A stretch of DNA of 30,878 nt from a virus (taxonomy: Duplodnaviria; Heunggongvirae; Uroviricota; Caudoviricetes), in the IMG/VR virus record IMGVR_UViG_2534682158_000010, positions 1-30,878 of that record; one strand, written 5' to 3'. Below are positions 5,061 to 30,878 of the stretch, piece after piece. Position 1 is the first letter of the stretch, and every line of letters begins with the position of its first letter. The notes under the pieces are model-generated. The model did no database searches. It was not told where the DNA came from and worked only from the letters and a program-made list of their open reading frames with translations. Position numbers and translations under genes: made by a program.

Positions 5061-8000
5061 TTATGCGTATTGTTGGATGACGGCCAGAACGTCCGCCACG
5101 TTGTGTTTTGTCTCGATAATCCACCAGTTACCTGGGAAGTCGCTGTTCTTCGCCTTCGCTGGCAACCAGCGAGCGCCGAATTTCGCCTTGATTGCGTCTT
5201 TCGCACGGAAAAGAACCCCTTTCATGCCGGAGGCTTCCTGAAGCCCAAATACCTCGCCAGCGGCGAATTTTGGTGCGTACATCATCTTCAGGTCGGCGGT
5301 GGATACGCGATAATTCAGACCAAGAGACTGAGCTATGCTGGTGGCATCACCCTGTATTGATGATAACTCTTCTTGTTTCTCGTTTCTGGCAGCAATTTCT
5401 TCCTCCGTGATGTTGCCAAGGGCCAGGTTTATCCGATCAGCGTCTGCCTGTTTCTCTTCATCGGTGCGCCCGGCAAGTACCGTGTTAATTCTGTGCAATA
5501 TCTCCACATGATTCTTGCGCATGCTGAGCAATTCCGGCGTAACCTCGTTAAGGTCCACCAGCCCAAGGATGGCAAGGTCGGTAAACATTGATACCAGGTT
5601 GTAGGTCATGCGATAGCTGAGTTGCCCATAGGCTGATGGCAACTGCACCGCATCCATTTTATAGGCATCCATAAATTTAGAGCCGTCGTTTACGACATCC
5701 GCAATTGCCGGTGTGATTTTTCCTGTGGTGGCGGCCTCCCTGATTGCTGTTACCCACGATTGAGTCAGCGCGGCGACTGCATGATTCAGATTGACTTTCC
5801 GTTCTGCTGCAATGCGCGCGCTTGCTGCGTCCATTGCCTGCTTGATCTCGTCTTTATTGCTGTAAATGCCAATGGTGCCAAACTGTGCTGTGGTGATCTC
5901 ATAATCTGACGCCCGGAACTCATTGGTACCGAAAATGGCATTGGTGACTTCAAGTTCAGAATCCCCGTTACGAGTAGCCCCCTGGCTTGTTTTCTCCGGC
6001 ATTCTGGCGATCGCATCCGCTATTTTCTCCTGAATTGCTTCAGGGGATAGCGTATCTCCGTATGACGCGATTACATCGCCATAATTGGAGCCAAACAGTT
6101 CAACCAGGAATGCTTCTGCCGAACGGATCTGGCGGTTATTCCCTTCCGACATCATACCAAGCACCCATTTTGCAATTGACGACTTCAGCGCGCCGTCACG
6201 GCGATCCGGGTAAACCGCATGCTTCAGTGGGTCCGTATAGGTACCAACAAAATCAATGCTATAGCCTGACTCTGTAGTCTGAACGCCGTATGAGTCAGTG
6301 ATTTTGATCATGCCGCGCTGCTGGAAACGGTAGAAATCGTCACAGGAAACGATGTCGTTAATCCCGGCGATGGAGACGCCACCACTGATTTTCTGCATAA
6401 CAGCATCTTCATCGGGAGTTACATCAACCTGTTTATCCAGCGTCTTCACATCCCAGTTACCAGATTTGGTGCCTTTGAAGGTGAAGATGATCTCCACGTC
6501 TGCGCGCTGGCTGTCGAAGTCCAGCGACTTAATGCGAACGATATCACCGGCACAATCGTAGTATTGGCCTACACGCCATGAGCGATCGCCGATAACAAGG
6601 AACTCACTCGCATGGTTAACCAGGTCAGGATCAACATCCAGAATGCCTTTATTTAATGCATCCTCCACCAGCGGGCGCAGGCGTTTGATATCCGTCGCGG
6701 CCTTCTGAGTACGGTTCAATAATTTCTCATAGCGGGAGATGGCTTGAGAGATATTAGCCTTGCGCTGAATGGCGCTTTTCAACGACGCGCGATACTGTGC
6801 TAACAACATACGGTCTGTGTGATGGACGCTACCCCAGCGGGCTTTCCAGTCTGCGTTATCAGCTGCTTTGGCCATTACCGCCTGTTTGAATTTGGCGACG
6901 TCGGCGGTGGTCTTTTCAAGTTCCGCTTTGCTTCGCTCCAATTCAGCGGTAAGTACCTCCACATCCTCACCAGCTGCGTGCTGCGCCTTGATGTAGTTCT
7001 GAAGGTCGATAGTAGCCTGTTCTTTCTGGCGAGCGCGTTTCGCAGCTTTCGCCTTATCCATTTGAACCTGCATCATTGCCAGACGTTCGCCGTCATCCTT
7101 CGCGGTATACATCTGCATTTCGATCATATCGTTGGCGTCGGCGTTCTCCATTTCTGACTTATCTGAACGGAGGATATCGGAGATCCAGCCTGCTTTACGC
7201 TTCAGCGTCTTCAGTCGGTATTCATCGAAAGACCCCTTGCCGCAGTAGTAGTGAACGCGAACGCTTGCACGGTTGGAGCCAACTCGGGCACCGCGACCGT
7301 TTCGTTGCGCAATACTGGCTGGAGTCCATGGCAACGTCAGATGATGGATGTCAGTCGTTCCTCGATGCAGGTTGATACCCACCTCTGCCTTTTTGTTGCA
7401 GATGATGATCGGAGTCCGGCCCTCCTGGAAGTCGGCTGCAATCTTTTCCAGACCGCCCAACGACATTTCATTTTGCTGCGCGATATAGGCGTCATACAGA
7501 GCCATTTGCTCGTTGTATTTCGCTATCTGTGCATCTGTTGGTTCATCCGGTAACTCTTTCGGCGGTTTAACCGCTTTCAGTTTCTTACCGGTTTTACCTG
7601 CCTCGGCAACCGTCTGAGCATTCAGTATCCCCACCTTTGAAGGTTCAAGGTTAAGAGCATTGCAGATAATGCGCTTGAGCTTCTGGTGCTGCGTTTTTTC
7701 ATCGGTGAAGATGATTTGCTTACCTTCCGGGAAAAACTCCTTCAGCGTGGCAATCAGCTTCGCGTATTTGGGCGTAACGGGGTGAGTTACGGTCTGTTCG
7801 TCAATGCCAAACCTGGCCAGGCGCTTATTCACTTCCTGCTCGAACGCTTCCGGAACCTGCAACTGAATAAACTCGCCCTTATCTATCAGGGAGTATTGCG
7901 ATTGCTGCGTGATTGAATCATCACTGTCGTCGTCTTCGCTGGTGGCTTGTTTAGGCAAACTGTCCGCCAGCTGCTGCACCGCATCGGCGTACTCCGGCAG

Positions 8001-11000: not shown

Positions 11001-11828
11001 CGGATGTTTGCGCATCAGCACCACATCAACAACTGTACTGGTCCCGTTTGCGTCAAAAGTACCGGTAGGCAAGCGGTGGGCACCAAGAAATTCAGCTTTC
11101 CGTGATAGGCGCAGGCGTAACCGTTTCATGTTTGAACCTGAAACAATGGACGGCGGCACAATCACACACATGAATCCGCCAGGTTTTATCTTGTCCAGCA
11201 TGCGGAGCATGAAGTAAGACCCCATGTCCGTTTCTTCTGCGTAAGGCTTATCGATGTTGCGTGTGTTATCACGACCGCCGAACGGAACGTTACCCACAAC
11301 ATGGTCGAATGAATCGTTAGGCGTGTTTATAGCCAGCTGTTCGAACGGGGAAATCTGTACGCTGTCTTCCGGGTGTAACAACTGGTTTATACGACCGGAA
11401 ACACTGCTGATCTCAGTCGCGGTCATCACCGTACCAACCGGTTTTGTCTCATTAAAAACGCCGGTTCCCGCCGATGGTTCCAGAGTGTTACCTACGTCCG
11501 CGCCGTAGAGCTTCATGATCTCCCAGACACCTTCAGCGATAGGCTTTGGTGTGTAATATTCGGAGACGGACCCGCCAATGCCGCCTTCACCAGTGTACCC
11601 GGCCAGGATCTGGCGCTGTTCATCTGTCAGTGTCGCGCCGTCCACCAGCGAATTAAGCAAATCTATCGCCTTCTGATTCGCCTCCCGGCGCAGTCGGTCA
11701 TAGCTTTTGCCTTCCACCTTTTCCACGCCGTATTTAATCGGCGCTCGGTGAGATGTTATTGCCCTAATGTATTTCAATATTTCGCTGACACTTGAACAGC
11801 GAAACACACCCATAGATAGCTTGTTCAT
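5061..11828 (-). CDS. darB: DarB, large antirestriction protein with N-terminal methyltransferase-like and SF2 helicase domains
   Basis: 2255 aa, matching P1 DarB length as recalled; MTase-like motifs LEPSAGTGVF and NVPFGG; Walker A GFGTGLGKTT and DEGH box; AAGGA SD. Confidence 0.95.
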   Translation of the reverse strand: MNKLSMGVFRCSSVSEILKYIRAITSHRAPIKYGVEKVEGKSYDRLRREANQKAIDLLNSLVDGATLTDEQRQILAGYTGEGGIGGSVSEYYTPKPIAEGVWEIMKLYGADVGNTLEPSAGTGVFNETKPVGTVMTATEISSVSGRINQLLHPEDSVQISPFEQLAINTPNDSFDHVVGNVPFGGRDNTRNIDKPYAEETDMGSYFMLRMLDKIKPGGFMCVIVPPSIVSGSNMKRLRLRLSRKAEFLGAHRLPTGTFDANGTSTVVDVVLMRKHPAEMAEKIPLVDESTLESANVLWPTFISGKWFEKDGRRFVHGTQEKGFQGRIEVRADGQIDNQALKAKLIHRFESRIDWSLLDMAEPSPTADVVGEGEMRLINGVWQKYAGGRWIEADAGKELKIDAASYGADSWEALQRNLTTTEGRLGMTFTQMANVRDKYTTSISDDMVQLVDWINSQPEKYRERLYRGAMIGRMLIEYQDMKAAGHSAEQIEQQRLSLVSRLQAEIDRFGNPGRGPIAKLSGSGARAWFAFRGAIKLDGTISDELTGKLVTHDSSASYDSTSYQDTLRYLYSDLTRDPIQLDDFRLAFTGELPASDDELLNLLASTPGIAVSPYGGIVPFARATSGDINEIVAPKQEFLATLPDGPVKNNVLNQLAAIEEKRIKTPAENIRFKLNSRWFDRSVILEFLQENGYPDLRYVQSVQLEGDEMVSDTYHGGDGLFVGHRYGVVQRKDKETGEIRYEWDRKSGENATGFPAQLEKYLNGARIGGKDSATANGYREQMALLEDQFNKWIKTHDRYDELVAKYNDVFNSNIPYEHSGDPLGLKGLSGKRQPFDYQNSEVRRLSEDGRGILGFGTGLGKTTTALALEAFNYENGRSTRTAYVVPKSVLENWYYEAKEFLSEEAFSNYLFVGLDVLMDGDQIRQVQVLDENGKPVLGTDGTPVMRDALKLADEATITARMNAIPHSNYRAVVFTKEQYARIPLRDDTVDEHAQDMLYDFVAAGRVASAMDSDSHRKEAARRRVLSEYSDTGTEKAEKYPYFEDMGFDSVIADEGHNYRNSYKNGREASQLAYLPTSAVAQSARDMAIKNAYLMKKNGGRGPVLLTATPVVNTPIDAYNMLSHVLPKEYWQNMGIYGPDDFVKFFGKTRLETVQKISGEVEEKMALVGFENLDALRGIFHRWVTLKTAEDVKDTVEIPELDEHQQDAPLTEEQLAAYEELRQQAEAAAKANNGVTTSVNEDGVIEHEKARPIFSIIRDMDRVCTDMDLYYRRITYRFLPEYADAVQQLADSLPKQATSEDDDSDDSITQQSQYSLIDKGEFIQLQVPEAFEQEVNKRLARFGIDEQTVTHPVTPKYAKLIATLKEFFPEGKQIIFTDEKTQHQKLKRIICNALNLEPSKVGILNAQTVAEAGKTGKKLKAVKPPKELPDEPTDAQIAKYNEQMALYDAYIAQQNEMSLGGLEKIAADFQEGRTPIIICNKKAEVGINLHRGTTDIHHLTLPWTPASIAQRNGRGARVGSNRASVRVHYYCGKGSFDEYRLKTLKRKAGWISDILRSDKSEMENADANDMIEMQMYTAKDDGERLAMMQVQMDKAKAAKRARQKEQATIDLQNYIKAQHAAGEDVEVLTAELERSKAELEKTTADVAKFKQAVMAKAADNADWKARWGSVHHTDRMLLAQYRASLKSAIQRKANISQAISRYEKLLNRTQKAATDIKRLRPLVEDALNKGILDVDPDLVNHASEFLVIGDRSWRVGQYYDCAGDIVRIKSLDFDSQRADVEIIFTFKGTKSGNWDVKTLDKQVDVTPDEDAVMQKISGGVSIAGINDIVSCDDFYRFQQRGMIKITDSYGVQTTESGYSIDFVGTYTDPLKHAVYPDRRDGALKSSIAKWVLGMMSEGNNRQIRSAEAFLVELFGSNYGDVIASYGDTLSPEAIQEKIADAIARMPEKTSQGATRNGDSELEVTNAIFGTNEFRASDYEITTAQFGTIGIYSNKDEIKQAMDAASARIAAERKVNLNHAVAALTQSWVTAIREAATTGKITPAIADVVNDGSKFMDAYKMDAVQLPSAYGQLSYRMTYNLVSMFTDLAILGLVDLNEVTPELLSMRKNHVEILHRINTVLAGRTDEEKQADADRINLALGNITEEEIAARNEKQEELSSIQGDATSIAQSLGLNYRVSTADLKMMYAPKFAAGEVFGLQEASGMKGVLFRAKDAIKAKFGARWLPAKAKNSDFPGNWWIIETKHNVADVLAVIQQYA

Positions 11829-15607: not shown

Positions 15608-15624
15608 ATTGCTCTAATTAATTT
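15608..15624 (+). promoter_or_regulatory. C1 operator-like 17-mer ATTGCTCTAATTAATTT upstream of ssb
   Basis: 16/17 match to ATTGCTCTAATAAATTT; 20 nt upstream of the ssb GTG start. Confidence 0.55.
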
Positions 15625-24768: not shown

Positions 24769-24842
24769 AAGTTCCCTCCTACGTTGTCAGGAGGTAATGG
24801 TATGCAAAGTAACTTCTCAACCGGTTATGTTGCATAAGAGAC

Positions 24843-25106
24843 TTACCTATTCAACCGACTTTTGGAACCTTCAATAATAAGCCTGCTATTGGCGCTGAAA
24901 ATAAGAACCATGCAGCTCTGAAGGCTTTCATTCATGTCCTTATATTCCGCGAGATACATGCCAATAAAGCCAGCAAGTACGGCGGAAATACATTCGGCCA
25001 GCAATTTCTTGCATGAAGACTCGTAACGGTTTTCACATAGCCCACTCAAATACGAATACACCCCACCAAGAAGGGATAACATCACGATATGTACATAAAA
25101 TGTCAT
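24843..25106 (-). CDS. Hypothetical small membrane protein (87 aa) upstream of the holin
   Basis: AGGT SD at 5 nt; two hydrophobic segments; possibly a further lysis-cluster gene. Confidence 0.4.
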   Translation of the reverse strand: MTFYVHIVMLSLLGGVYSYLSGLCENRYESSCKKLLAECISAVLAGFIGMYLAEYKDMNESLQSCMVLIFSANSRLIIEGSKSRLNR

Positions 25107-25233
25107 TTTTTACCTATACAACAGTAAGTTGAACAACATTTGAGAACGGTATGCACTTTGTGATTTCCACACACACTGGTTTTGTTAATTAAAACCTGTA
25201 GCTTGCAATAAATAACGATAGTGGGCAGAAAAT

Positions 25234-25420
25234 ATGCTAATAGGCTATGTACGCATATAGACAAATGAACAAAACACAGCTATGCAGTGAAAAGCACTTG
25301 AAAGCGCAGGATGTGAGCTAATTTTTGCGAATAAGGCGAGCAGCAAAAAAGCTGGGCACCCTGGGTTAAAAAAGGTTCTGCGTATGCTTTCCAGAGGTGA
25401 TACCCTAGTCTCGGACTAGG
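25234..25420 (+). pseudogene. Decayed 5' remnant of a Cin/Gin-family serine invertase gene
   Basis: Translates to MLIGYVRI*TNEQNTAMQ*KALESAGCELIFANKASSKKAGHPGLKKVLRMLSRGDTLV with in-frame stops; the catalytic serine codon is replaced by a stop; homology ends near 25420. Confidence 0.6.
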
Positions 25421-25541
25421 GACAACATTTCGAGAACAGTTTTCATTAGCGGCCAGCAGGCGCTAGATACATCGAATTGATGTGCCGCGCGATAAATGTA
25501 CCTATTCTATCAAGATAAATTACACCGACGCGGCATTAGAA

Positions 25542-26114
25542 TTACAGCTCAGATTGAGTTTGGCGCTTCTCTACAGGATGATAACGATAAATCGTCGATA
25601 CACCGATATCGTAAATAATTGCCAACTGTTTCCTGCTGTAGCCATTTTCGATCAACCTCGCTATTTGCTCATGTTGTTCTTTTGTCAACTTCGGGCGACG
25701 TCCGCCAATGCGTCCCTGTTCGCGTGCAGCTGCCAGTCCGGCCAGTGTTCTCTCAACAATTAATTCACGTTCCATTTCTGCTAAAGCACCCATGACATGA
25801 AAAAAGAAACGCCCCATGGGTGTTGATGTGTCAATACTGTCTGTCAGACTACGGAAATTAACACCTTTTTCCCGCAACTCCTCTATAAGCGTGATAAGGT
25901 GTTTCATACTTCTGCCAAGCCTATCCAGCTTCCAGACAACCAGCGTATCTCCTTCTGATAACGTTCTGAGCAGCTTTTTCAAGCCTGGTCTGGCTGACTT
26001 TGTTCCGCTTATTTTATCTTCAAAAATCAGTTCACATCCTGCGCAGTTCAGTGCATTTCTTTGTAAATCTGTGTTTTGGTCATTTGTTGACACACGAATG
26101 TAGCCAATTTGCAT
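25542..26114 (-). CDS. Gin/Cin/Min-family serine DNA invertase
   Basis: 190 aa from ATG 26114 (AGAGG SD); catalytic motif IGYIRVSTNDQ, conserved core VVWKLDRLGRSMKHL...SLTDSIDTSTPMGRFFFHVMGALAEMERELIVERT, C-terminal HTH. Confidence 0.93.
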   Translation of the reverse strand: MQIGYIRVSTNDQNTDLQRNALNCAGCELIFEDKISGTKSARPGLKKLLRTLSEGDTLVVWKLDRLGRSMKHLITLIEELREKGVNFRSLTDSIDTSTPMGRFFFHVMGALAEMERELIVERTLAGLAAAREQGRIGGRRPKLTKEQHEQIARLIENGYSRKQLAIIYDIGVSTIYRYHPVEKRQTQSEL

Positions 26115-26168
26115 GAAAAACAACCTCTTTGTTTAGTTAAAAATACATCGTTGGTATAGGTAGGGATT

Positions 26169-26194
26169 AAGACTAAAACGTTGGTTTGGGGGAA
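26169..26194 (+). other. Invertase crossover site s1 (26 bp), at the 5' end of cassette B'
   Basis: AAGACTAAAACG-TT-GGTTTGGGGGAA; fits the Gin-family 12-2-12 architecture. Confidence 0.7.
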
Positions 26195-26653
26195 GGCTCA
26201 GCATTGCCCGTTGGCGTGCCCGTTCCGTGGCCCTTAGAAACACCACCAACGGGCTGGCTGAAATGCAATGGTGCAGCATTTTCTTCTGAAAAGTATCCAA
26301 ATCTGGCAAAGGTTTACCCCACCAATAAATTGCCGGATTTACGCGGTGAGTTTATTCGCGGCTGGGATGATGGGCGGGGGATTGACTCTGGCCGTAATTT
26401 ATTATCTGCACAGAATGATGCAATTCAGAATATTGTTGGTTCTTTCGGGCGTACTCAGCTTTTTAGAGATGTACTTAGTTCAGGGCCATTTAGTCAACAT
26501 GGTCAAGTATTATCTACAGGCCTAAAGGAAACGGAAATTATTGAGGGTTATGGCGCTTATAACTGGACATTCGACGCCTCTCGCTCAGTTCGTACAGCAT
26601 CTGAAACCCGCCCACGCAACATTGCGTTTAATTACATCGTAAGGGCAGCATGA
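26186..26653 (+). CDS. Silent tail-fibre C-terminal cassette B' (tail-collar domain)
   Basis: No genuine start (in-frame with the crossover site); conserved N-terminal GEGSALPVGVPVPWP...LPDLRGEFIRGWDDGRG and C-terminal RPRNIAFNYIVRAA. Confidence 0.75.
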   Translation: MGEGSALPVGVPVPWPLETPPTGWLKCNGAAFSSEKYPNLAKVYPTNKLPDLRGEFIRGWDDGRGIDSGRNLLSAQNDAIQNIVGSFGRTQLFRDVLSSGPFSQHGQVLSTGLKETEIIEGYGAYNWTFDASRSVRTASETRPRNIAFNYIVRAA

Positions 26654-26672
26654 AAACGTTGGTTTGGGGGAA
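26647..26672 (+). other. Invertase crossover site s2
   Basis: AGCATGAAAACG-TT-GGTTTGGGGGAA; spans the stop codon of cassette B'. Confidence 0.7.
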
Positions 26673-27167
26673 GGCTCGGCGCTGCCCGTTGGCGTGCCTG
26701 TTCCATGGCCCTCAGCCACACCGCCAACGGGGTGGCTGAAATGTAACGGAGCAGCATTTTCTTCTGAAAAGTACCCAAATCTGGCAAAGGTTTACCCAAC
26801 GTTAAAATTACCTGATTTACGCGGTGAGTTTATCCGTGGTTGGGATGATTCGAGAGGGATTGATACAGGGCGTTCATTGCTAAGTGGTCAGACTGCAACA
26901 TTTATTCGTACAGCTTTGCAGGATTATTACGGTGTCGATCTGACTACTAATGTCAAAGTAGGTATCGCTTATGCTACTGCTGATTCTGTTATAACTGTTG
27001 GAAACCCTGCTAATCCTAAAGCAGGAGATAATAGCGATTATGTTCCAGCATCAGCAGATAACTCCATAACAGGCACTCAAAGGACGGCAGAGGATAATTT
27101 TACCGGGGCATGGATATCAATGCGCCCCCGCAACGTTGCTTTTAATTACATTGTAAGGGCCACATAA
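26664..27167 (+). CDS. Silent tail-fibre C-terminal cassette E
   Basis: Same conserved ends, unique central region (QTATFIRTALQDYYGVDLTTNVKVGIAYATADS...). Confidence 0.75.
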   Translation: MGEGSALPVGVPVPWPSATPPTGWLKCNGAAFSSEKYPNLAKVYPTLKLPDLRGEFIRGWDDSRGIDTGRSLLSGQTATFIRTALQDYYGVDLTTNVKVGIAYATADSVITVGNPANPKAGDNSDYVPASADNSITGTQRTAEDNFTGAWISMRPRNVAFNYIVRAT

Positions 27168-27186
27168 AAACGTTGGTTTAGGGGAA
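27161..27186 (+). other. Invertase crossover site s3
   Basis: CACATAAAAACG-TT-GGTTTAGGGGAA. Confidence 0.7.
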
Positions 27187-27207
27187 GGCTCGGCGCTGCC
27201 CGTTGGC

Positions 27208-27675
27208 GTGCCTGTTCCATGGCCCTCAGCCACACCTCCAACGGGGTGGCTGAAATGCAATGGTGCAGCATTTTCTTCTGAAAAGTACCCAAATCTGGCA
27301 AAGGTTTACCCAACGTTAAAATTACCTGATTTACGCGGTGAGTTTATCCGTGGTTGGGATGATGGGCGAGGGATTGACTCTGGTCGCTCTATTTTAAGCG
27401 AGCAAGGATATGCAACGGAGGATCATGCTCACGGATTACCGTCAAAATCAACCGTAGCAACTGACCGCTCAATTAATTTCTACTTTGACGAGGCATGGGC
27501 TACTAGTGGTAATACGGGAGTTATCAGATGGGGGAACACAAGCGATGCAGGATTGCCAGCCCCTAATTATGGAACTTTTAAAACATATAAACAGTCCGTA
27601 GCTAATTTAGGTACTGCTGGCTTAGAAACCCGCCCTCGTAATGTTGCATTTAATTATATTGTGAGGGCGGATTAA
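27208..27675 (+). CDS. Silent tail-fibre C-terminal cassette D
   Basis: Open frame actually begins at the crossover site near 27175; unique central region (GYATEDHAHGLPSKSTVATDRSINFYFDEAW...). Confidence 0.75.
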   Translation: MPVPWPSATPPTGWLKCNGAAFSSEKYPNLAKVYPTLKLPDLRGEFIRGWDDGRGIDSGRSILSEQGYATEDHAHGLPSKSTVATDRSINFYFDEAWATSGNTGVIRWGNTSDAGLPAPNYGTFKTYKQSVANLGTAGLETRPRNVAFNYIVRAD

Positions 27676-27680
27676 TTATA

Positions 27681-28292
27681 TCAACTGGCTGTAGAAAGTT
27701 GTTTTTCAGGCCAGTTGAGATCTGGTGCCGTGGTTAAATCCATCGCGTTCAGCTCGTCTATATAATCTAGCACGGAGTTAAGCTGTGTGGTTTCTGCCTG
27801 CGTCAACTTCCGTCCAGCCTGTAATTTCAACTGAATCAGACTAATGGAAGCCATCGCAGTATCAATCAATGACTGACGTTTTGTTTCTGCTGCCTCTACA
27901 GCTGCACTATGTTGAGCCTCAGTATCAACCACCCATTTCTCTCCATCCCATTTGTCGTATGGTGTTAGCGGGGCGATAGTGGTTGTATTTTCCGGATAGT
28001 CACCCAACACCGTGATTTCTTCGGGATTCCCAGTGTCAATGCTATAGACAGTTTCGCCACGATGATCTGGCACATACTCCCATGAACTTAAATCCTCTGA
28101 ACGGAGAATCGCATAACCTGCTTTATGTGAGCCTGGAGCATCCAAACAAGAATTTGCCGGAATACCAACGCCAACAGCAAGATATTCAGTTGATGCAGAA
28201 ATATATTCCCGATTACCACCATCATAGTTATAAACGATAATGTTTCCTGCCTGTATGGCTATAAGTTCGCTATTTAATATCGCATTATCCAT
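27681..28292 (-). CDS. Tail fibre assembly protein (Tfa / U-like chaperone)
   Basis: 203 aa; C-terminal region LIDTAMASISLIQLKLQAGRKLTQAETTQLNSVLDYIDELNAMDLT typical of Tfa proteins; start overlaps cassette C stop (TAATG). Confidence 0.85.
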   Translation of the reverse strand: MDNAILNSELIAIQAGNIIVYNYDGGNREYISASTEYLAVGVGIPANSCLDAPGSHKAGYAILRSEDLSSWEYVPDHRGETVYSIDTGNPEEITVLGDYPENTTTIAPLTPYDKWDGEKWVVDTEAQHSAAVEAAETKRQSLIDTAMASISLIQLKLQAGRKLTQAETTQLNSVLDYIDELNAMDLTTAPDLNWPEKQLSTAS

Positions 28293-28750
28293 TATGCTGC
28301 TCTCACAATATAATTGAAGGCAATGTTACGTGGGCGGGTTTCATTCCCCCCAGATAACTCCGTTCTGTATTGACTGGTAAATTTACCATTAATCGCTCCT
28401 TCTTGGACGGCGTTATCTGTCGACAACAGACTATCCCCCCCTCTGTCATTTGGCACCAATACCGTGTTATCCCACGCGTCCCATGACCGAATATTATGAT
28501 AATGACTTCCTGTTAACCACCCCTGTATGCTTAAGATGCCCCTTCCCGCATCCACACCTCGCCCATCATCCCAACCACGGATAAACTCACCGCGTAAATC
28601 AGGTAATTTTAACGTTGGGTAAACCTTTGCCAGATTTGGGTACTTTTCAGAAGAAAATGCTGCTCCGTTACATTTCAGCCACCCCGTTGGTGGTGTGGCT
28701 GAGGGCCACGGAACAGGCACGCCAACGGGCAGTGCCGAGCCTTCCCCCAA
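28292..28750 (-). CDS. Silent tail-fibre C-terminal cassette C, translationally coupled to Tfa
   Basis: Conserved ends; unique centre (GWLTGSHYHNIRSWDAWDNTVLVPNDRGG...). Confidence 0.75.
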   Translation of the reverse strand: MGEGSALPVGVPVPWPSATPPTGWLKCNGAAFSSEKYPNLAKVYPTLKLPDLRGEFIRGWDDGRGVDAGRGILSIQGWLTGSHYHNIRSWDAWDNTVLVPNDRGGDSLLSTDNAVQEGAINGKFTSQYRTELSGGNETRPRNIAFNYIVRAA

Positions 28751-28767
28751 ACCAACGTTTTCATGCT
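28742..28767 (-). other. Invertase crossover site s4
   Basis: Plus strand reads TTCCCCCAAACC-AA-CGTTTTCATGCT. Confidence 0.7.
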
Positions 28768-29267
28768 GCCCTTACGATGTAATTAAACGCAATGTTGCGT
28801 GGGCGGTTTTCGTTTGCAGTTGGAACAATTTTTGAAGCATCAAGGCCAATCACTTTTGGGTAAACAGCGCCGTCTGTCCTTTCTGTCACCATACTTCTGA
28901 CTAAGGAAAAATAACTATTGTTTGTTGAGGGAGTTAAAGGCACCACTGCCCCCTTAAACGAGCCTACTGATTCCCATATTGAATAATTTTCAGTATTTAC
29001 AGTCTTGAACTCACCATAGATATTACGTATGGCATCACCTTGAGCGGATAATATTGTTCTCCCCGCATCCACACCACGTCCGTCATCCCAGCCGCGAATA
29101 AACTCACCGCGTAAATCCGGTAATTTATTGGTGGGATAAGCCTTTGCCAGTTCTGGGTATTCTTCAGCAGAAAAAGCTGCTCCGTTGCATTTTAGCCAGC
29201 CTGTTGGCGGAGTGGCTGAGGGCCATGGAACAGGTACGCCAACAGGCAATGCTGAGCCTTCCCCCAA
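28761..29267 (-). CDS. Silent tail-fibre C-terminal cassette A' (near-identical copy of A)
   Basis: 168 aa; differs from cassette 29756..30262 at 2 residues. Confidence 0.75.
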   Translation of the reverse strand: MGEGSALPVGVPVPWPSATPPTGWLKCNGAAFSAEEYPELAKAYPTNKLPDLRGEFIRGWDDGRGVDAGRTILSAQGDAIRNIYGEFKTVNTENYSIWESVGSFKGAVVPLTPSTNNSYFSLVRSMVTERTDGAVYPKVIGLDASKIVPTANENRPRNIAFNYIVRAA

Positions 29268-29284
29268 ACCAACGTTTTCATGCT
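29259..29284 (-). other. Invertase crossover site s5
   Basis: TTCCCCCAAACC-AA-CGTTTTCATGCT. Confidence 0.7.
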
Positions 29285-29745
29285 GCCCTTACGATGTAAT
29301 TAAACGCAATGTTATGGGGGCGTGTTTCAGATGCTGTGCGAACTGAGCGAGAGGCGTCGAATGTCCATACAGAAGCACCATATCCTTCAATGATCTCAGT
29401 TGGTTGTAAGCCTACTGATAATATAGAGTCAGTTTGACTAAATGGTCCTGAATTAAGCGCATCTTTAAAAAGCTGAGTACGCCCAAAAGTGCCAACTATA
29501 TTCTGAATAGCGTCAGACTGTGCAGACAGTAGGTTGCGCCCATTATCAACGCCCCGTCCGTCATCCCAGCCGCGAATAAATTCGCCCCGTAAATCCGGTA
29601 ATTTATTGGTGGGGTAGGCCTTTGCCAGATTGGGGTACATTTCAGAAGAAAATGCTGCACCGTTACATTTCAGCCACCCCGTTGGCGGCGTGGCTGAGGG
29701 CCATGGAACGGGCACACCAACGGGCAGTGCAGAGCCTTCCCCCAA
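29278..29745 (-). CDS. Silent tail-fibre C-terminal cassette B
   Basis: 155 aa; divergent paralogue of B' (26186..26653); C-terminal motif carries H in place of R (ETRPHNIAFNYIVRAA). Confidence 0.75.
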   Translation of the reverse strand: MGEGSALPVGVPVPWPSATPPTGWLKCNGAAFSSEMYPNLAKAYPTNKLPDLRGEFIRGWDDGRGVDNGRNLLSAQSDAIQNIVGTFGRTQLFKDALNSGPFSQTDSILSVGLQPTEIIEGYGASVWTFDASRSVRTASETRPHNIAFNYIVRAA

Positions 29746-29762
29746 ACCAACGTTTTCATGCT
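29737..29762 (-). other. Invertase crossover site s6
   Basis: TTCCCCCAAACC-AA-CGTTTTCATGCT. Confidence 0.7.
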
Positions 29763-30262
29763 GCCCTTACGATGTAATTAAACGCAATGTTGCGTGGGCG
29801 GTTTTCGTTTGCAGTTGGAACAATTTTTGAAGCATCAAGGCCAATCACTTTTGGGTAAACAGCGCCGTCTGTCCTTTCTGTCACCATACTTCTGACTAAG
29901 GAAAAATAACTATTGTTTGTTGAGGGATTTAAAGGCACCACTGCCCCCTTAAACGAGCCTACTGATTCCCATATTGAATAATTTTCAGTATTTACAGTCT
30001 TGAACTCACCATAGATATTACGTATGGCATCACCTTGAGCGGATAATATTGTTCTCCCCGCATCCACACCACGTCCGTCATCCCAGCCGCGAATAAACTC
30101 ACCGCGTAAATCCGGTAATTTATCGGTGGGATAAGCCTTTGCCAGTTCTGGGTATTCTTCAGCAGAAAAAGCTGCTCCGTTGCATTTTAGCCAGCCTGTT
30201 GGCGGAGTGGCTGAGGGCCACGGAACAGGTACGCCAACAGGCAATGCTGAGCCTTCCCCCAA
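29756..30262 (-). CDS. Silent tail-fibre C-terminal cassette A
   Basis: 168 aa; conserved ends, unique centre (GDAIRNIYGEFKTVNTENYSIWESVGSFKG...). Confidence 0.75.
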   Translation of the reverse strand: MGEGSALPVGVPVPWPSATPPTGWLKCNGAAFSAEEYPELAKAYPTDKLPDLRGEFIRGWDDGRGVDAGRTILSAQGDAIRNIYGEFKTVNTENYSIWESVGSFKGAVVPLNPSTNNSYFSLVRSMVTERTDGAVYPKVIGLDASKIVPTANENRPRNIAFNYIVRAA

Positions 30263-30279
30263 ACCAACGTTTTCATGCT
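30254..30279 (-). other. Invertase crossover site s7
   Basis: TTCCCCCAAACC-AA-CGTTTTCATGCT. Confidence 0.7.
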
Positions 30280-30878
30280 GCCCTTACGATGTAATTAAAT
30301 GCGATATTTCGCGGCCTGACAGCAACAAAATTTATACCATCACCTACAGAGTTACTGGTGAAATTAAATCGTGAAAATCCTGGCTGATTTCCGACGATGC
30401 CATCATGAAAATTAATTGCGTGCCCCGCACCATCACCTATATTTCCGGCACGCTGAGAAAAGTTTGTAGCCTCTTGGCTGCTTAATAATGCTCGCCCATT
30501 GTCCACACCTCGTCCATCATCCCAACCTCGAATAAATTCGCCCCGTAGATCCGGCAATTTATTGGTGGGGTAAACCTTTGCCAGATTTGGGTACTTTTCA
30601 GAAGAAAATGCTGCTCCGTTACATTTCAGCCACCCCGTTGGCGGTGTGGCTGAGGGCCACGGAACAGGCACACCAACGGGCAGCGCCGAGCCTTCTCCTA
30701 AACCAAGGTAATCAAGAACGCTCTGAATACTGGTCTTACCAAGAATGGCGCGTCCAACACTTGTCAATGCAGTTAACGCGGCACGATCAACACCTGTGAA
30801 ATAAGGGAGTTTATCTGCTGCTGTAGCTAGTGCCGCTAGGGCAGTGAGCGTAGCGTCTGCCGCTTGCTTTCCATTAGC
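30273..30878 (-). CDS. Tail fibre protein S, 3' portion: constant part fused to the currently expressed cassette F (5' end beyond the window)
   Basis: Frame is open from the window edge (ANGKQAADATLTALAALATAADKLPYFTGVDRAALTALTSVGRAILGKTSIQSVLDYLGLGEGSALP...) through cassette F; the TTG at 30767 is not a real start. Confidence 0.85.
   Translation of the reverse strand, partial: ANGKQAADATLTALAALATAADKLPYFTGVDRAALTALTSVGRAILGKTSIQSVLDYLGLGEGSALPVGVPVPWPSATPPTGWLKCNGAAFSSEKYPNLAKVYPTNKLPDLRGEFIRGWDDGRGVDNGRALLSSQEATNFSQRAGNIGDGAGHAINFHDGIVGNQPGFSRFNFTSNSVGDGINFVAVRPRNIAFNYIVRAA
30693..30718 (-). other. Invertase crossover site s8 at the junction of the S constant part and cassette F
   Basis: TTCTCCTAAACC-AA-GGTAATCAAGAA; the best-palindromic of the eight sites. 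Confidence 0.7.

Follow-up and report, generated by a model that had tools for sequence, protein, structure and literature searches.

A 5' remnant of a P1-type cin gene, very probably inert, facing a Min-type invertase module in a P1-like phage-plasmid

Results

Gene order and P1 synteny to the left of the remnant

The stretch of DNA analyzed here, which we refer to as the window, comprises 30,878 nucleotides and matches plasmid p12579_1 of E. coli O55:H7 RM12579 (NC_017653) at 100% identity. The locus of interest lies between a holin gene and a DNA invertase gene. The lydC-type holin gene (24843..25106, minus strand) was identified as an open reading frame with matches in records annotated as LydC or "phage holin family protein"; as in P1, it is the gene to the left of cin. 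The alignment with P1 extends uninterrupted from hdf into cin, across lydC and the intergenic region, and cin has the same start codon as in P1 and is divergent from lydC. Compared with P1 across the lydA-cin interval, the window is syntenic from hdf to lydC and carries no P1 DNA on the right side.

The genes hdf, lydB and lydA are 98.0%, 99.1% and 100% identical to those of P1, respectively, and the corresponding values are 77.7% for lydC and 82.7% for the lydC-cin intergenic region. Similarity to P1 changes sharply within 24769-24843, from 98-100% on the left to 78-89% in lydC and rightward, which points to a distinct recombination boundary that separates lydA from lydC, approximately 400 nt to the left of the cin remnant.

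A truncated cin gene with two in-frame stop codons

Next to the intergenic region, positions 25234..25410 on the plus strand correspond to the first 177 nt, or 59 codons, of a P1-type cin gene. This pseudogene fragment, psi-cin, was delineated by alignments, BLASTP and Pfam. The frame that opens at 25234 reads MLIGYVRI-stop-TNEQNTAMQ-stop-KALESAGCELIFANKASSKKAGHPGLKKVLRMLSRGDTLV, and then SD-stop. Codon 9 is TAG (25258-25260) in place of Ser9 (TCA), which we take to be the catalytic serine of the invertase, and codon 19 is TGA (25288-25290) in place of Arg19 (CGA). The original prediction, made from the sequence of the window, had described a decayed invertase N-terminus with a stop at the catalytic serine codon and with a closer resemblance to P1 Cin than to the neighbouring invertase. 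This description was confirmed: in addition to the two stop codons, BLASTP aligned the conceptual product with P1 Cin at 49 of 59 identical residues (83%, E = 1e-34), which is far from chance similarity, and with the intact neighbour at 37 of 59 (63%, E = 5e-26). The fragment also matched the Pfam Resolvase family (PF00239) with 37.1 bits, as compared to the curated cut-off of 23.3 bits, at E = 4.3e-9 and with residues 3-59 placed on positions 2-68 of the 145-position profile.

At the DNA level, psi-cin is 88.7% identical to P1 cin and 86.4% identical to P7 cin over the 177 nt, with no indel, and 15 of the 20 differences from P1 cin are found in the stub alone. A complete domain and a helix-turn-helix (HTH) were looked for and were absent, the frame ending after codon 59 of 186, and the serine of the YxRVSTxxQ motif is replaced by the TAG codon. 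Thus, lacking the catalytic serine and the HTH and with its frame truncated, psi-cin is a pseudogene rather than a functional member of PF00239. The fragment had originally been placed at 25234-25420, convergent with the intact invertase and about 120 bp away from it. The start and the convergent orientation held, whereas the homology to cin stops at 25410 and the distance to the stop codon of the invertase (25542-25544) is 131 nt.

The intact cin genes of P1, P7 and D6, which belong to the Din family of Fis-dependent serine DNA invertases, occupy the same position, downstream of lydC or, in D6, of lydA. They share the start codon and 84-89% identity over the 177 nt, and they carry their enhancer in the 5' coding region, as does the stub. 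Unlike these genes, the stub retains 59 of 186 codons, has stops at the catalytic serine and at Arg19, and is devoid of the DNA-binding domain, cixL and the C-segment.

Substitutions in the remnant and its upstream region

Changes specific to the stub were defined against five intact or open cin 5' regions, those of P1, P7, D6, p16-6773.2 and SJ46. The 15 unique changes in the stub lineage comprise 10 non-synonymous changes, two of them nonsense, and 5 synonymous changes, as compared to 5 non-synonymous and 22 synonymous changes among the five intact or open alleles (Fisher p = 0.003, for a small sample). As judged from the base changes, this pattern indicates relaxed constraint and has a neutral look.

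The lydC-cin intergenic region (25107..25233, plus strand) contains decayed copies of the ribosome-binding site and of two cin promoters, P1cin and P2cin, which are sigma-70 promoters predicted in the P1 annotation and thus predictions even in P1. The predicted -35 hexamer of P1cin (TTTCCA, 25164-25169) is kept and its -10 hexamer has changed from TAAAAT to TAAAAC (25190-25195); both predicted P2cin hexamers are lost (25113-25118 and 25134-25139), and the Shine-Dalgarno sequence has changed from GAG to GGG (25223-25225). A generic sigma-70 scan found no plus-strand promoter in 24800-26300. The degraded predicted promoters and ribosome-binding site, together with the two in-frame stops, the truncation after codon 59 and the ratio of 10:5 versus 5:22 (p = 0.003), bear out the earlier description of the remnant as decayed.

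The recombinational enhancer of Cin, annotated in P1 at 31678-31749 (nt +19 to +90 of cin), maps to 25252..25323. This relic shows 10 differences from P1 over its 72 positions, and all of them lie in the first 45 nt; the remnant shares the last 27 nt with P1, P7 and D6 without a single difference, and all intact alleles are invariant there. The spacing of the putative Fis sites is unchanged.

A C1-repressor operator near the stub, similar to Op(lydC) in P7, was considered and rejected, as no site with up to three mismatches was found there. Elsewhere in the element, two matches to the P1 C1 operator consensus ATTGCTCTAATAAATTT, at 15608-15624 and 11758-11774 with one and three mismatches, are probably genuine immunity operators.

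The breakpoint and the spacer

The homology to cin ends abruptly at 25410. In a megablast search of 24800-26200 against phages, P1, P7, D6 and their relatives matched only up to this position. Among the approximately 270 PLSDB records listed, the P1-type plasmids with an intact cin gene (80-90% identity band) all stop at 25410, and the match ends slightly before 25410 for a few more divergent cin alleles in the same listing. In a three-way alignment, an identity of approximately 89% turns into noise directly after ...GGTGATACCCTAGTC. The left boundary of the module swap is fixed to a single base, 25410/25411.

The spacer (25411..25541), as delimited by alignment, contains the junction, together with the 3' flank that the invertase module brought in, and has no homology to cin. 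Its best local alignment with the rest of cin scored 14, below the shuffle mean of 17.6, and the interpretation of the spacer as heavily decayed cin was rejected on this basis; beyond the truncation, cin similarity is absent in any frame. From approximately 25416 the spacer aligns at about 80% identity with the D6-like plasmid pEc-050, and 25474-25541 aligns with the 3' flank of the invertase gene in chromosomal prophages of E. coli B7A and ST131. The latter segment, which lies directly downstream of the invertase stop codon, is common to prophages integrated at different sites (ppiD and aroA). It contains a long conserved hairpin (25485-25534) with a fold z-score of -2.97 and no T-run, and may serve the invertase module as a terminator or in regulation.

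A perfect 8-bp palindrome (CCCTAGTC tcg GACTAGGG; 25403..25421), which was read in the sequence and is predicted to form a hairpin, straddles the breakpoint. Its left arm is already present in an intact cin allele (locus L012), and the change A25415G in a sister plasmid breaks one pair of the right arm. A functional hairpin or terminator was rejected given the absence of a T-run, the pre-existing arm and the sister mismatch. The palindrome is probably incidental; it may be due to chance or be a trace of how the join was formed.

A junction made by an invertase at a quasi-cix site was judged to be unsupported. Nucleotides 167-178 of intact cin (ATACC CT GGTCG) fit only 8 of the 12 positions of the AAACC-WW-GGTTT core, the central dinucleotide is CT as compared to TT in cixL and all eight mix sites, and other stubs break elsewhere.

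The Min invertase and the tail-fibre cassettes

The gene on the other side of the spacer (25542..26114, minus strand) encodes an intact Min/Pin-type DNA invertase of 190 amino acids, with Pfam matches to Resolvase (2e-51) and HTH_7 (3e-15), and is convergent with psi-cin. The product is identical to WP_001165547.1, and the exact sequence is found in UniRef as Q05517_ECOLX, "DNA-invertase". In the mechanical list of open reading frames the gene starts at TTG 26123 (193 amino acids); the start homologous to that of other invertases, MQIGYIRVST, corresponds to the ATG at 26114 (190 amino acids), as in the RefSeq protein. The min DNA is approximately 77-79% identical to e14 pinE and matches P1 cin weakly, and no match to P1 was obtained for 26100-30878 by megablast.

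The 5' end of min adjoins the first of eight mix crossover sites (AAGACTAAAACG TT GGTTTGGGGGAA; 26169..26194, plus strand), from which an invertible tail-fibre cassette region extends to approximately 30770. The sites were identified by a regular-expression scan and by repeat families, with P1 cixL for comparison, and are all of the form ...CG/CC TT GGTTTrGGrGAA. Three are oriented one way, with GGTTT half-sites starting at 26183, 26661 and 27175, and five the other way, with half-sites starting at 28753, 29270, 29748, 30265 and 30704. They are located in repeats of about 300 nt that head the C-terminal cassettes of the tail fibre. Within 26169-30730, the mix sites head nine such cassettes, together with a tail-fibre assembly gene (27681-28292). 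p15B was described with six mix sites; compared with that number, the eight in the window may represent an expanded shufflon-like array in a relative, and the cassette content may differ.

In phage Mu gin and e14 pin, the 5' end of the invertase gene faces the invertible DNA. The min gene and its 3' flank from approximately 25474 are homologous, at 74-87% identity, to e14 pinE and to the invertase genes at the ends of chromosomal P2-like prophages (adjacent to ppiD in B7A and to aroA in ST131). The invertases at the P2-like prophage ends have the same layout, with the 5' end toward the tail-fibre cassettes; these prophages differ from the window in that they have no cin stub and continue into the host chromosome beyond the invertase flank. 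Thus, from the prophage-type flank of the invertase and its 5' end abutting a mix site, we conclude that the incoming module is of the prophage Pin type and is oriented like gin and pin, which is the reverse of cin.

Distribution and relation to p15B

The remnant and the junction were found in 147 plasmids in PLSDB (query coverage of at least 80%), and among the full-length matches listed they are 98.6-100% identical. Two isolated Punavirus phages carry the same scar. One variant of the scar was compared base by base and showed five differences, none of them in the stop codons. In the PGAP annotation of RefSeq NC_017653 the stub is left unannotated, and we suggest that it should be marked as a pseudogene. 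In the record of phage vB_EcoM-673R5 (ON470615.2; locus L003, 2241-2812), min is annotated as overlapping "Hin1" and "Hin2" genes in a region that is 99.1% identical to the window, which suggests a frameshift or a sequencing error in that record.

The feature is already known, in that the RefSeq annotation of P1 records a homology to p15B (X62121, the Min multiple-inversion region, studied by Sandmeier, Iida, Arber and colleagues in 1990-1992). According to this annotation, nt 7147-7408 of p15B match P1 31570-31832 over 262 nt at 89% identity with one gap, which covers the cin promoter and the first 173 nt of cin. Homologies to lydC and lydA are recorded just beyond the p15B stub, and a homology to the min enhancer at 6463-6533. 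By our own arithmetic on these coordinates, the distance from the end of the p15B stub to the min enhancer is 614 nt, which is the exact spacing in the window. The order and spacing of lydA, lydC, the cin stub and min in p15B, as seen indirectly through the P1 RefSeq coordinates, are thus the same in the window. Sandmeier, Iida and Arber, in J Bacteriol in 1992, reportedly concluded that Min took the place of a Cin-like system in an ancestor of the p15B genome. Sequence MF510496 is 99.9% identical to 24800-26200 of the window, and this plasmid has been reported to be 99% identical to the min region of p15B (PMC5786510). The arrangement in the window and that in p15B, a plasmid of E. coli 15T-, appear to be the same locus, and we infer base-for-base identity with X62121.

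Other cin stubs in P1-like and D6-like elements

Stubs of different lengths were observed at the same locus in other elements. In the window, which is of the p15B type with a P1-like backbone, 177 nt of cin are kept and followed by the convergent min gene. The IncY plasmids pEC21Z083-80K and pEC18-3 retain approximately 215 nt of cin followed by other sequence, and no invertase was seen in the 2 kb examined. In Salmonella phage SJ46 (Punavirus SJ46), approximately 234 nt are followed by a convergent pin gene that is about 75% identical to the min gene described here, and in the D6-like pEc-050-T20-MAC_3, approximately 306 nt with frameshifts are followed by a gene for the same Min protein. In the retrieved loci, the stubs are located at 1146-1370 in SJ46 (L014), at 2688-2865 in pEc-050-T20-MAC_3 (L006) and at approximately 2035-2250 in L009 and L010.

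The SJ46 stub has kept the serine codon and is open over the first ~180 nt; its frame of 74 codons, convergent with pin, is annotated as a "DNA invertase" of 74 amino acids. The pEc-050-T20-MAC_3 stub, which points at an opposite Pin/Min-type invertase, is labelled by PGAP as a frameshifted, incomplete recombinase pseudogene. From the differing stubs (nt ~215, ~234 and ~306) we conclude that truncation or replacement of cin recurs at this locus in P1-like and D6-like elements. In every case the stub matches the cin allele of the backbone that carries it, which suggests several independent replacements, or transfer of the junction by recombination. The right flanks of the window and pEc-050 are homologous from approximately 25416, and the junction of the window type may have been formed by a secondary deletion of a longer stub of the pEc-050 type or may have arisen independently.

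Alternative explanations for the remnant

Some observations speak against inertness of the stub. The distal 27 nt of the Cin enhancer are fully conserved, albeit in a segment without variation among the intact alleles; the stub contains no indel despite approximately 8.5% lineage-specific substitution; and its near-constancy across many plasmids might point to some constraint. The stub could have been retained for a function in cis, with the enhancer relic (25252-25323) binding Fis as a second enhancer for Min, or with the stub providing signals for the divergent lydC gene. Consistent with this, the enhancer annotated in P1 lies wholly within the stub with its last 27 nt unaltered, enhancers of the family are generally known to act from afar and in either orientation (Hin system, PMC3798978), at least four different types of junction have kept a 5' stub of cin, and the 177 nt have remained free of indels. 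However, 9 of the 15 stub-specific changes are located within the 72-nt enhancer and 6 in the other 105 nt, the opposite of what conservation would produce. By alignment, three of the changes would fall in the segment corresponding to the promoter-proximal Fis site of hin, and G22, changed to A in the stub, is presumably the critical outer G of a Fis core. Moreover, 2 nt are deleted between the enhancer halves in the D6-like stub, which would alter the helical phasing, min carries its own enhancer by homology (83% match in the P1 annotation), and the stub has neither a C1 operator nor a promoter-like site on the minus strand. A function in cis is therefore unlikely in our view. We are a little more doubtful about a broader version, in which the 5' end of cin is a preferred and retained boundary for the exchange of tail-fibre modules in P1-like and D6-like phage-plasmids. 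The first ~180 nt may in that case contain a cis-element (half or all of the Fis enhancer, or control signals for lydC), or the stretch coding for GDTLVVWKLDR (ATACC CT GGTCG), which is loosely cix-like, may be a quasi-recombination site for invertases. If this were true, stubs of 177 to ~306 nt would survive for a reason.

It could also be argued that the old cin promoter still fires through the stub into min and that the resulting antisense RNA keeps the expression of Min and the frequency of inversion low. The layout is convergent with a gap of only 131 nt, P1cin has kept its -35 hexamer, and there is no strong intrinsic terminator on the plus strand between the stub and min. Against this, the final T of the -10 hexamer of P1cin, as a rule one of its most conserved bases, has been changed (TAAAAT to TAAAAC), both P2cin hexamers are lost, the sigma-70 scan found no plus-strand promoter in 24800-26300, and no known RNA family matched this interval in Rfam at E <= 1, all of which makes the antisense explanation highly improbable. 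Finally, the stop codons could be sequencing or assembly errors, or the similarity could be due to chance, with the real gene intact or merely frameshifted. Both objections had been raised with the original prediction. The same sequence is present in the 147 independently assembled plasmids and in phage isolates, which excludes an assembly error, and both stops are unchanged in the variant checked base by base. The truncation after codon 59 with no cin similarity beyond it in any frame, and the BLASTP E value of 1e-34 to Cin, likewise contradict an artefact or a chance match. Nothing was found in favour of this explanation and it is refuted by the data, with practically no probability left to it. 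We consider it very probable that 25234-25410 is psi-cin, the 5' stub of an invertase gene of the P1 cin type, and that this stub is inert, with no residual function.

Discussion

The original prediction that an ancestral Cin system with its C-segment was replaced by a Min-like module is supported by the P1-syntenic left side and by the DNA to the right of 25410, which is foreign to P1. The ancestral plasmid-prophage would have had the P1-like order lydC, cin, cixL and C-segment. A foreign module for tail-fibre variation, consisting of a Min/Pin-type invertase, multiple mix sites and C-terminal tail-fibre cassettes, would then have displaced the last two-thirds of cin along with the entire C-segment, bringing with it an invertase flank like those seen at chromosomal P2-like prophage ends. 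On the left, the junction would represent an illegitimate join after cin codon 59; the right-hand boundary would fall in the tail-fibre gene S, outside the window. We infer both this mechanism and the direction of the exchange, with Cin replaced by Min and not the reverse.

After the exchange, the stub would have lost all function and drifted, acquiring two nonsense codons and an excess of amino-acid changes, along with damage to the promoters, the ribosome-binding site and the proximal half of the enhancer. Inversion would at present be carried out by Min, acting at the mix sites and with an enhancer that is expected to lie within min.

The scar is of the ordinary phage mosaic kind, and the stub provides one data point on the exchange of tail-fibre diversification cassettes among phages rather than a new mechanism. 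It is a clean molecular fossil that gives a date and an orientation to a swap of the host-range module in a widespread family of phage-plasmids, some members of which carry resistance genes such as mcr-1.
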